Assembly: GCA_034780895.1 (NCBI GenBank) | Contig: JAUZTB010000017.1 | Coordinates: 18,910,102 to 18,974,101 of the forward strand | Direction: 5' to 3' | Origin: Rhynchobatus australiae | Taxonomy: Eukaryota | DNA length: 64,000 bases | Shown here: piece after piece, positions 13,478-18,200 of the stretch | Numbering within the stretch: position 1 is the stretch's first letter | How the letters are laid out: the number at the start of each line of letters is the position of its first letter | Program-made: the position numbers and the translations under genes | Notes under the pieces: generated by a model | The model's database searches: none | Seen by the model: the letters and a program-made list of their open reading frames with translations, nothing else | What the model was told of the DNA's origin: nothing

Positions 13478-13606
13478 CTCTGATTCACTACATTCATCAG
13501 GTGAATCATGGTGCACAGCCATCTGATACTTGGAATACAGAGTTGCTGATTGGTTAAAGGATTCATTGAAAGCTGGATCATCGAAGGAAACTGGCACTAG
13601 TTTCAC
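13478..13606 (-). CDS. ATE1: ATE1 exon 7, 3' copy (VKLVPVSFDDPAFNESFNQSATLYSKYQMAVHHDSPDECSESE)
   Basis: ctgaag|GTG acceptor, GAG|gtaaaa donor, 129 nt phase 0-0. Matches the mammalian VRLVPxSFED-type exon 7. Confidence 0.96.
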
Positions 13607-13705
13607 CTTCAGAGCAGGAGATCATGTAAATTTTCAAAGTAAAAATTGATAACATGTTTACAATAGGAGACAAAGTAAACAAAGGTTTACCATTTAGTTT
13701 TACCA

Positions 13706-13754
13706 CTGAAGGCAAGAGTAGTGCAGGTTCTCCTCCACATCCAGTTCAAAATCC
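13706..13754 (-). promoter_or_regulatory. Intronic RNA element complementary to the acceptors and 5' ends of both ATE1 exon-7 copies (R3-like docking site)
   Basis: The + strand reads CTGAAGGCAAGAGTAGTGCAGGTTCTCCTCCACATCCAGTTCAAAATCC. In the minus-strand pre-mRNA this element can therefore pair with CUGAAG|GUGAAACUAGUGC (17 of 19 pairs including G-U) and CUGAAG|GUGAGGCUAGUG (17 of 18 including G-U). Confidence 0.8.
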
Positions 13755-15094
13755 TATCTAAATTTATTCATATAACTAAGTGTCAAATTTTTCTTAACAA
13801 ATTTGTAACTAATAAATTTGATTTTTTTTCCCCCTTTTTTGTGCCTATCTGCTGACAATAAACAACATCAACTTGATTTGTAAGTTCTACCTCTGCCTGA
13901 GTCCACATTTCCAAGCTGCCAACAAACCCTTATGTTTACAGTTACAAACTGGCTCCAGGTCAAATTGCTAGGTGAATCATTATAATCACTTAACTGTTCC
14001 CTTAGACTACATAGACTGTCCTGTGCAAAGAAATCCATGTGAGGAAAATCACTTGTGACAATTTTAAACTAGTCATCTTTTGACACCAATTCACGAAGGA
14101 AAAAATCTTCCCCTTTTTCAACCTATTAGAACTCAAATTTGAAAAAAAGGAACTCCATACATCACCACTTAATTTTTCCTTTGGCACTGCTGATAGTGTC
14201 TCCTATTCTTGGCATCATTCCATGGAATTGACACAGTACAATACACATGGCTTTAATGCCCTTTCTAAAAATGGGAGCTGTCAAAAATGCAGGGTATACA
14301 TTAATCTGGAGTAATATAATTTACAAAGAACTCAAATCTTTCTAGATATCAAGTTAAATATTTATGATATACAAATTNNNNNNNNNNNNNNNNNNNNNNN
14401 NNNNNNNNNNNNNNNNNNNNNNNNNNNNNNNNNNNNNNNNNNNNNNNNNNNNNNNNNNNNNNNNNNNNNNNNNNNNNCAAATTCTATGCTCTGGACTCCC
14501 ATAATAATGGCATTCTAAATGGTGCTTAAGATCTGTGCTTGTATGTGCACAGCTTCTTCCCAGCACAAGAGTTTCAGGCTGTCATCATTTAACAGCAAAA
14601 TGGATAGAACTGCAGTGCTAAACCTGTACTATAATTGATTATCCAATTATAAAGAGGAAAATGACATCTGTATTCTCAAAAGTGGTTTGATAAAATTACA
14701 AAGCCAGTTGTTCATTTTGTTAGAGTGAATTTTCATAATCAATTCTGCTCATTTCAGAAATTGCAGAATGTTTCTTTTAATTTCTTAAGTGAATCTAACA
14801 TTTTATTAAATTTCACGTACATGGAGGATTATTCAAAGAATTTGTAATTTGAGGATTATAATTTACATATACAACCTTGTCATGAAGCTCTATATTAGAC
14901 ATACTATATTTTCACTATTTAGCATTTTTATTTGGTATTTGTTAACGATTAATACATACCCCACTGAAATTGGAAAGGGAAAGAAATATTCAGATGAACA
15001 TCAATTTTTTTCTACTTGAATCTAAGAACAATCCTTTCACTAGCTGGGTTGCTTTACCCCTAAAATTTAAGAATTAAGTGCATCTAATTCTAAC

Positions 15095-15223
15095 CTGCTG
15101 TTCAGTTGGTTTATCAGGGGGGTCCTTGTGGATGGCCATCTGGTACCGTTTATAGACCTGGTAAGACTCCTGAAAAGTTGCTGTGAACTGGGAGTTTGGT
15201 GGAGATGACCTCACTAGCCTCAC
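15095..15223 (-). CDS. ATE1: ATE1 exon 7, 5' copy ([43 protein letters not shown])
   Basis: ctgaag|GTG acceptor, CAG|gttaga donor, 129 nt phase 0-0. Matches the mammalian VRVVRSSPP-type exon 7. Confidence 0.96.
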
Positions 15224-18200
15224 CTTCAGGAGGCAAGAAGAAAATAAAAACATTAAAAGCAAGTATATTAATAGCTACATTAGTTACTTATTAATTAAAT
15301 GTTCTAAGATTTAAGGCAAAAAAATGTAACAGAAAAATTACAAGGAGTTATCAGGAAAATTACAAAATGTAACAGCATCATCCAATCTTATACAATCAAT
15401 GCAATTAACTACAGTTACCGTAAAAAATTTACATTAAGTTTTTGAAGACTTTTGTAAAATGAAGTCTCTTTGCTGTGACCTTCAATGAATCGTATTATAG
15501 TATCTCACTTTCGCAGAAAGCCATTATCCGAATGCTTTGAGCCAGCAAAACACGCTAGTGTGGTTATGTATTGATAGGATCTTTTAAGTTCATATCTTAA
15601 ATGTTCAATAGTAATTGTACATTTTTATTTGATGACTCAGGGTTCACACATTTTACAGATCAACAATCAGTTAATAAAGCCACATATAAAAGTTAGAATC
15701 AATTTCATAGCTTTTTTTCCTTCAGTGGAGATAATTTATCTAATTAATGCCACAGTTAGTTTTCTTTTCACATTCAAATTGAAGCATGTACATTTAATTA
15801 CCTTACCAAGCTTTAATTTTCTTAAGAGAAACAGGTCAACACAAAACTCTTACTGGTAATTGCGGGCCAGATTTGCATTTTTTTTTAATTTACTTTCTTG
15901 TCACTTTTATTTTTAAACTGAAGTTTATCAGCAACGGTTTAAAGAAAATGCTCCAATATTCACAATATTTATTGATCCAATTTCTGGAAAATATATCTTT
16001 TAGTCATTGTCATGCTGAGATCACACACATCCTACTTTCACTACATAAATATTACTCATATCTAAAATTACATTTCAGTTTAAAAAATGCCACAAAGATC
16101 TCTATAATAATCTAAAACTCTATTAGCTGGAGGGAATGCAAGGGAAATGAAGTAATAATGTCAGCACGAGTATATGATTCCAACTCAAAGATTAGTTAGA
16201 TTTCAAAATTTTGCAAAATTTCAAAATATATAAATGTCAAATGAACCANNNNNNNNNNNNNNNNNNNNNNNNNNNNNNNNNNNNNNNNNNNNNNNNNNNN
16301 NNNNNNNNNNNNNNNATACCATCTTTCAGTTGGGGAAAAAAAATTGAAGCGACAAGGATCGATCATCAAGAAAAAAAAAATTTGAAGAATAATATGGGGG
16401 AAAGAAACAATTTTTTAAATATTGCACCTCTCATGACCATGTACAGTATCAAAAAGGTTGATCAAGATACATCTGAGTAGCATTCCTTTCCGTCAAGAGG
16501 TACAGAGCTTATTATTTTATTGATTGATGGGATTTGAGTATGGCTTACAGGATCAACACTTAATTTTATCCCTAAGAAAGTAATAAATACTTTTTTGTTT
16601 AAACCACTTAGCTATATGTTGAAAGTAATTCCTGTTTTTTGACTGAGGTGTCAAAGAGCACATTATTGATGAGAAAGTGCTGAGGTTTGGGTGGGTGGGT
16701 CAGTGCAGTTCAGTTCATGGTTAAAATAGATACTTCCTTTGTGTCAATCTTCTTGCTGCCTACTACAATCCCAATTTGGCAACCACGTCCTTCTGGACAA
16801 TTAGTCTTGTCAGTAATATGGCTACTAAGCCAGTACTGGTGATGGACTAGTCCCCACCCACTTCACATTTGCCATTCCAACCCTTCGTGCTGCTTCCAAG
16901 AAATATTTAATGTGAAAGAGTACCGACTCATCAACTGAGCAAGGTAGGGGATGGTAACAGCAAGTGGTTTCCTTAATGCCATTGATTCCAGGCTCAATGA
17001 AATCATACATCAAGGAGTCCAGAACCACTTTCTGGTGACTGAATACCAATGTTCTGTCCCCTATGGTAATTCTGACTTAGTGGCATGACAGGACAAACAA
17101 GAATAGCGATGGAGACGTCTGGTATATTGGTGGGTATAACCCTATCAGGCTGTTTTTTGACTGATTTAGGAAAGCCTTCCATATCTAGCACATCACCTGA
17201 AATTAATCTGCAGGATTTATTAGACCAGTTGTGCTTCATGTCCAGTGCCTGGTTTGATGCAATGTGGTCAGCTAGATGTTTCTCCCCCCCCACATCATCA
17301 ATTTGTGCAGTGATGACTGGTTTTCCTCACTTTTGTTTTACAAAACTGGCAGTTGAAAGTTCTTGAGGATTCTTGACAGGATGTTTTTTTTTATTAAATC
17401 AAGAATAAAGGGTCTCTCATTTAAGGAGGACTAACTGTTTCATGACTCTTTTTTTCCTCAAAGGCAATTGAAACATGGCCAAATTTTTAAAATATTTTTT
17501 AAAAAAGGTGGGGATAGATAGATTCTTGATAAACAAGAAGCAGAAAAGATTACCAGCGTAGGCAGGAATTTGATTAGTCATGACCTTATTAAATGGCAGA
17601 GCAGGCTTGAGGGGCCAAATGGCCTAAACATGTTTGTAATTCATGGGTGTCACAAATTTGTAATTTCGTTTAAACTATTCATGGCTGGTTAGAACAAAGG
17701 CCAGGTCATTCCTTATAAAGAACAAAGCAATTGTCAATTTTTTTTTCCACCACTGGCAGTCCATAATTGATAGGATTCATATGTTCCCTTCTCACTCTCT
17801 TAGCTAGATGAAGTACAAATGAAGCTACTAATTATCTAAAAACTTAGAAGAAATTAACAGAAATCATAAAACTGCTCATTTTTAATCTTTGAGAAAGAAN
17901 NNNNNNNNNACATTTGTCAATTTGTACACAGTGTCACAATTTCATTTCTCTAATAAACAGCAAAATCAATTCCTTAAAAACTCAAAAATTCTGAAAAGGA
18001 AGAGATGTGCTTAACCCACTTGCACTGAAAACTACCATGTTGAAGATTTTTGGAAACACATTGTATATGAAGTTGCTAATATATTGTGTCCACAACTAAG
18101 CAGTCAGTCAAAAATAAAAATGCTTTTAGAAAAAGCATGAAAGAAAATGCAAGGAACCATTAGACAATTGACATATTTGATAAAACACAAGCCATCTGTT

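Follow-up and report, generated by a model that had tools for sequence, protein, structure and literature searches.

A candidate RNA-pairing switch between the two copies of exon 7 in the ATE1 gene of a cartilaginous fish

The closest described system is the human ATE1 gene itself, in which two versions of exon 7 (7a and 7b) are kept mutually exclusive by competing RNA structures. Single, double and triple mutants, together with oligonucleotides, show that two elements, R1 and R4, compete for a third, R3, and that this enforces exclusivity (PMC7797038). A further pairing, R2:R5, spans 30 kb and sets the 7a/7b ratio (PMC7797038, Kalinina et al. 2021). The same paper describes R1 and R4 as remarkably conserved across vertebrates and the origin of R1, R3 and R4 as untrackable (PMC7797038). 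The Figure 1 legend of its preprint states that all five elements are conserved through vertebrate evolution, and the names shark, lamprey and zebrafish are absent from the preprint text. The proteins ZFR and ILF3 are also reported to affect ATE1 exon choice, including double inclusion (10.1101/2022.06.15.495552; also a review). Here we describe a 64-kb stretch of DNA (the window, whose numbering is used throughout; coordinates with a prefix lie outside it) that encodes ATE1, arginyl-tRNA-protein transferase, on its minus strand, and in which one intronic element is complementary to the 3' splice sites of both exons 7a and 7b.

Two other kinds of system are comparable. In the SCN genes, intronic RNA pairing at mutually exclusive exons is conserved from shark to human (PMC12772994), but a single helix there sets the ratio, without competition for acceptors. 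In docking site/selector systems (Dscam1 and others; PMC6071210, Ivanov and Pervouchine 2018), one docking element faces two homologous partners made by tandem duplication, as in the ray, and a model of partial stem-loop duplication has been put forward for them. There, pairing activates the chosen exon, whereas in ray ATE1 it would mask the acceptor of the skipped one. A catalogue of tandem exon duplications lists the same 7a/7b event, with no mention of RNA pairing in the entries seen (PMC8373072, PMC9741552). None of the best 20 matches in the open-access literature deals with RNA pairing in the ATE1 of cartilaginous fish, and the core finding reported here is an extension of the published, proven human mechanism to that group.

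The window comes from a cartilaginous fish, most likely a batoid. The top database matches of exon 7a are rays and skates (93–95% identity), sharks (86–93%) and bony vertebrates (72–88%; best 120 of 411 matches), and exon 7b aligns with residues 274–315 of the human ATE1-2 chain (E 4e-13). NSMCE4A lies upstream and a TACC gene 0.3 Mb away, and the human gene order is ATE1-NSMCE4A-TACC2. The gene, the exon and the taxon had all been guessed in the original prediction, made from the bare sequence, and each guess held. The features of the exon 7 cluster are as follows, in the order of transcription.

15185..15237, minus strand: R1-like selector, comprising the end of the pyrimidine tract, the CUGAAG acceptor and the first 39 nucleotides (nt) of 7a; partner of R3
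15223-15095, minus strand: ATE1 exon 7a, 129 nt, AG...GT, phase 0, frame open
13697..13754, minus strand: R3-like docking element with its core at 13724-13706, complementary to the acceptor and the start of each of the two exons and ending 100 nt before 7b
13621..13696, minus strand: loop of the R3-R4 hairpin, with branch-point-like yUnAy motifs (motif match only) at -70, -34 and -21 of 7b
13559..13620, minus strand: R4-like selector, comprising the end of the pyrimidine tract, the CUGAAG acceptor and the first 48 nt of 7b; partner of R3
13606-13478, minus strand: ATE1 exon 7b, 129 nt, AG...GT, phase 0, frame open

The complementarity of R3 to the two acceptors can be read directly from the sequence. 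Within the 19-nt core, 17 of 19 positions pair with the 7b acceptor (15 Watson-Crick and 2 G.U), and for the 7a acceptor the count is 17 of 18 (14 Watson-Crick and 3 G.U), reproducing exactly the counts on which the original prediction was founded. The full element (13754-13706) has predicted duplex energies of -45.9 kcal/mol with 7b and -48.4 kcal/mol with 7a, and in a comparison with shuffled sequence, which had been proposed along with the prediction, neither value was matched by any of 2,000 dinucleotide shuffles (z -6.2 and -5.6). When 8,495 windows of 49 nt without N on the minus strand are compared, it ranks first as partner for both acceptor targets. The best partners within 2.5 kb of 11 control acceptors from ATE1 and NSMCE4A reached -26 to -35 (z -3.1 to -4.0), as against -51.3 and -41.9 here; 10 of these 11 acceptors were placed automatically, and several are probably a few nucleotides off. 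The R3 duplex adds 4–5 pairs inside each pyrimidine tract (13704-13697), and the local R3-7b hairpin folds better than any of 200 shuffles (z -3.73).

The two acceptors also resemble each other. Exons 7a and 7b are identical at 66 of 129 nt overall, and by zone the identity is 16/18 over -6 to +12, 6/24 just upstream and 56/117 downstream. Both use the unusual acceptor CUGAAG, whereas exon 8, and the single exon 7 of a paralogue described below, have CAG. Since the exon pair goes back at least to the divergence of hagfish (see below), the shared stretch around the acceptor points to a shared constraint.

It is worth adding that other complementary segments are present in the region. A 19-nt match to the start of 7a (12486-12468, minus strand, -23.0) lies 1 kb downstream of 7b, and a 14-nt match to exon 7b (15491-15478, minus strand) lies upstream of 7a. 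In human, RIC-seq (a sequencing method) likewise shows many extra pairings across the ATE1 cluster (PMC7797038). An 18-nt helix within the 7a-7b intron (14964-14947 with 14306-14289, minus strand) would make the loop between R1 and R3 some 650 nt shorter.

Comparison with human ATE1 shows the same arrangement. The genes are orthologous, the exons are 129 nt long, and one intronic element has complementarity to each of the two acceptors; another, lying upstream of R3, finds its partner near the far end of the 7b-8 intron, in a pseudoknot topology. The order R1-7a-R2-R3-R4-7b-R5-8 is the same in both. The R1/R3/R4 layout that had been predicted is thus shared by the human pairs, with spreads of 51 and 952 nt (PMC8052449 Table 1) as against 93 nt (R3-R4) and 1,487 nt (R1-R3) in the ray. 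The distances differ: the 7a-7b intron is 896 nt in human and 1,488 nt in the ray, and R2-R5 spans about 30 kb and 16.4 kb, respectively. The human pairing is proven by experiment, whereas that of the ray is predicted, and reaches 40–49 nt into both exons.

By analogy with human ATE1, where it is proven, we propose the following mechanism. Pairing of R3 with R1 would mask the 7a acceptor and loop out 7a, to give 6-7b-8. Pairing of R3 with R4 would form a local hairpin that masks 7b and encloses its branch-point region, to give 6-7a-8. Because the same R3 bases are used in both duplexes, and the net predicted energies after opening costs are close (-20.3 kcal/mol for 7a, -17.5 for 7b), either state should be reachable. 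We infer that the pairing occurs in vivo and acts on splicing, and put at roughly 0.82 the probability that the R3 element of the batoid 7a/7b cluster, complementary to both 3' splice sites, hides one of them at a time.

A second module, which the original prediction (confined to R1, R3 and R4) missed, is formed by the following elements.

13811..13840, minus strand: R2-like element, A/G-rich, forming a 30-nt helix with the R5-like element
L003:7407-7378 (G000:C17:18907508-18907479), outside the window: R5-like element, 34–63 nt before exon 8 and 16.4 kb from R2
L003:7344-7312, outside the window: ATE1 exon 8

In a seed search of the exon 7 cluster against the region from intron 6 through exon 8, R2:R5 was the top-scoring helix, and the two are reciprocal best partners among 13,527 windows covering 74 kb. 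From the R2 side, R5 leads clearly (-31.5, next -24.6). The helix lies at the end of the 7b-8 intron, the place implied by the human distance of 30 kb. Its formation would place 7b in a loop and draw the 7a side close to exon 8, and together with R1:R3 it would make a pseudoknot; if it acts as in human, it would determine the 7a/7b ratio and not exclusivity. On this evidence, a second module of the human type is probably present, with rather less confidence than for R3. The R5-like region (L003:7407-7345) also shares bases with a branch-point-like motif, UUAAU, and with the one long run of pyrimidines that precedes exon 8, the last 30 nt before that exon being pyrimidine-poor. R2:R5 might therefore also mask the splice signals of exon 8 itself until the RNA refolds.

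Several observations weigh against this picture. For R3, the excess of G.U-type mismatches (9 vs 4) is not significant (P 0.13), and the energies of both R3 and R2 exclude the cost of closing loops of 1.5 and 16 kb. Positions 13470-13860 share 0.45–0.63 of 38 words with the DNA of four other organisms, which in all four is no more than perfect exon conservation and a neutral intron would predict (P 0.89, 0.38, 0.10 and 0.29; the divergence for this expectation was taken from the R5-region comparison that follows). For R5, the lead of R2 is narrow when seen from the R5 side (-28.0, next -26.7, a gap of 1.3 kcal/mol), and the element is U-rich and could simply be the pyrimidine tract of exon 8. 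Contigs of four related organisms were compared with L003:6800-8100; of the 106 substitutions and 26 indels, 40 and 12 were displayed, and R5 was covered in three organisms. All three carry a U-to-C change inside CCUCC, which is compatible with the run of five G in R2. A U-to-A change in two of the three, and a 2-nt loss in one, would break pairs unless R2 changed too. Overall, R5 is conserved no better than its flanks (at least 1 and at least 2 changes per 30 nt, compared with 44 and 82 per 1,300).

The remaining adverse point concerns exclusivity. Gene models of elasmobranchs number 57 (from 8 clusters; three members of one cluster are not listed), of which 11 have 7a only, 11 have 7b only, 35 have both and none has neither. 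In gar, three of eight models have 7a only, two 7b only and three both. Both exons are also present in 119 of 120 cluster representatives among the matches listed, a set that is biased towards long, twice-matching models and includes mammals, though double inclusion is known to be rare there. Such models show that a 7a-7b junction is at least predicted, and carry no measure of abundance.

These counts bear on the earlier argument that a structural mechanism is needed here. Two other routes to exclusivity do not apply here: the two 129-nt exons, confirmed as open in phase 0, can be included together without shifting the frame or adding a stop, so that nonsense-mediated decay (NMD) would not remove the product, and the intron of 1,488 nt, close to the 1.5 kb first estimated, is too long for steric hindrance. 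The argument goes too far in presuming strict exclusivity, given the 35 double models, and in passing over proteins, since ZFR and ILF3 affect double inclusion (10.1101/2022.06.15.495552).

One alternative is that only the local R3:R4 hairpin forms, with its 93-nt loop. It would damp 7b and set the ratio, exclusivity would be loose or imposed by proteins, and the 7a match would be a by-product of the homology between 7a and 7b. The hairpin is indeed local and well folded, double-exon models are common, and DZF proteins alter ATE1 exon fusion in human cells (10.1101/2022.06.15.495552). However, R3 fits 7a at least as well as 7b, both in energy and in the length of collinear sequence (67 vs 50 nt), and the match to 7a includes stretches in which 7a and 7b differ. 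Furthermore, breaking R1:R3 in human raises double inclusion (PMC7797038). We consider a hairpin acting alone unlikely.

A quite different possibility is that R3 has no function. It would then be an inverted copy of acceptor and exon start that is gradually decaying, still visible because chondrichthyan genomes evolve slowly. Its reverse complement is collinear with the acceptor and 40–49 nt of exon, and neither the wobble bias nor the word-share test is significant. The exons predate the hagfish split, however, and the neighbouring intron differs by 4–7% between close relatives, so that a copy this old would have been erased if it were neutral. A young copy would match one exon nearly perfectly, not both imperfectly, and the human element at the same place is functional. 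This makes a functionless R3 very improbable.

Equally improbable is that the ray and human switches are alike but arose separately, for example because the 7b acceptor underwent a short inversion more than once. The spacing differs, and the human elements are described as intronic, 13–17 nt long and overlapping the pyrimidine tract, while the ray duplex is mostly exonic. Against a separate origin, all five elements stand in the human order, and their conservation in the course of vertebrate evolution is stated in the human paper (PMC7797038); the human catalogue took in no more than 10 nt of an exon, a limit that would shorten the helix it reports (PMC8052449).

The competing-pairing switch of the human type is favoured by the pairing and null tests, the identity of the 7a and 7b acceptors, the annotation of both single-exon isoforms, the natural controls described below and the human mutagenesis. 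It is likely that it works in the ray too, and that the ATE1 switch is no younger than the first jawed vertebrates; we infer common ancestry with human R3 from position and topology. Conservation across the split of cartilaginous and bony vertebrates had been suggested in the original prediction, and position and topology agree with this; vertebrate conservation as such was already stated in the human paper. Five elements recognisable in cartilaginous fish would date a two-module switch to the jawed-vertebrate ancestor, and such a date would weaken the view of R2:R5 as a late answer to intron growth.

The exon pair itself is older. Hagfish (Myxine) has both exons, with four double, two 7a-only and two 7b-only models among eight, and its second copy groups with 7b of jawed vertebrates (support 96/97, 43 columns). 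Exons 7a and 7b had thus arisen by the time hagfish branched off. The 7a/7b event has been catalogued and dated at least to Bilateria (PMC8373072, PMC9741552; in the PMC8373072 supplement, two sheets have the event numbers interchanged), whereas the human paper places the duplication after the chordate radiation (PMC7797038). A crinoid and an abalone each have two isoforms of the same length that differ at exon 7, which agrees with the Bilateria date and disagrees with the later one; the hagfish copies and the metagenome copies described next also fit the Bilateria date. Convergence has been raised (PMC9741552), and the vertebrate, crinoid and abalone pairs could reflect either one event or several.

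A metagenome scan gave no vertebrate-like ATE1 among at least four loci (55–63% identity). Two of four such loci are animal-like (L012:4021-4400 and L013:5586-5955), and carry a tandem duplicate of the exon 7+8 unit, the two copies separated by introns of 56 and 43 nt. In both, the first copy ends in DKP like vertebrate 7a and the second in EC like 7b. Exclusion of one exon by an intron too short to be spliced is an established steric mechanism, and introns of this length appear short enough for it. No strong shared partner for both acceptors was found in either locus (best -30.9/-26.6 and -43.6/-28.9).

The origin of R3 can also be addressed. The plus strand of R3 is collinear with acceptor and exon start, with 50 matches to 7a over 13682-13748 and 39 matches to 7b over 13706-13755; none of 5,000 random segments scored as high. 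A profile of 7a and 7b finds only positions -11 to +41 (E 0.028). An inverted copy would be the simplest source of an antisense match of 50–70 nt to coding sequence. The partner of R3 is largely coding, which points to R3 having been copied from the exon, unlike the elements of Dscam1-type systems. An inverted copy and selected complementarity look alike here, because the wobble bias is not significant and a longer homology was rejected. This longer homology, extending about 100 nt to the KYQM codons, failed since 47 and 62 of 400 controls scored as high in the distal part for 7b, with a still poorer result for 7a and for the paralogue. That exon 7 was triplicated as a whole in inverted form is likewise unsupported, the similarity being confined to -11 to +41.

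It may be noted that 13712-13855 on the plus strand, antisense to R3 and R2, forms 47 open codons after an AG, in which ARVV, QFK and KCQ echo exon 7. These echoes are probably chance, the distal similarity falling short of significance.

We tentatively suggest a history for these elements, which we regard as possible though doubtful as a whole. R3 would have begun as an inverted copy, since decayed, of the exon 7 acceptor with the first 40–50 coding bases, made by fold-back (template switching) just upstream of 7b. It would have replaced the steric exclusion provided in invertebrates by an intron of 43–56 nt as the vertebrate intron grew. R2:R5 would have been added before the split of the jawed vertebrates, and a chondrichthyan paralogue would have lost 7b and R3 together. 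If true, an inverted copy would explain the elements whose origin the human paper could not trace, and the route would be a docking site copied from an exon, unlike a duplicated stem-loop arm. No paper on an inverted-copy origin of R3, or on inverted duplication as the source of a docking site, was found among the best 20 matches in the open-access literature. How the docking site arose is testable by alignment alone, because the locus has natural controls in hagfish, which keeps both exons, in a paralogue that has one exon 7 and no R3, and in invertebrates with tiny introns.

The paralogue is a divergent, intron-containing ATE1-like gene at G000:C73:5935000-5975000 (L005-L009), with the exon layout of ATE1. 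It occurs in chimaera, sharks and rays; no paper on it was found among the best 20 matches in the open-access literature. Its single exon 7 (L007:4567-4695, plus strand) is 7a-like, sharing 23 of 43 residues with 7a and 17 with 7b. The exon is flanked in the ray genome by N gaps of 257 and 719, which could hide a second copy; none was found in 11 of 11 relatives, and all 18 models are of this single-exon type. Its acceptor has no nearby partner, the best (-42.4) being purine-rich sequence 5.4 kb away, beyond exon 8. Its branch in the tree is very long and leaves its position unplaced, and an attempt to date the exon pair by means of it failed for this reason. An origin by whole-genome duplication is unsupported: searches with TACC (C17, C75, C64) and NSD (C75, C87, C64) gave no marker on C73, and a search of the genome for the FGFR family returned nothing, its positive control being silent too.

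The rest of the ATE1 gene was also mapped. Exons 1a, 1b and 2–6 are all located upstream of exon 7a, the last of these being placed as follows.

19883..20134, minus strand: 3' part of ATE1 exon 6, the upstream constitutive exon, found by tblastn, with the donor after 19883; only the 3' boundary is fixed

The introns measure 4,659 nt (6-7a), 1,488 nt (7a-7b, including a 100-N gap) and about 16,133 nt (7b-8), and N gaps are present. A third CTGAAGGTGA at 8602 was considered as a further exon copy and ruled out by stops in all frames. The NSMCE4A exons (about 51082-61308, minus strand) lie on the same strand as ATE1 and were placed using fused database models. The gene also has two homologous alternative first exons of the 1a/1b type, as in mammals, at 40702-40616 and 39781-39683 on the minus strand.

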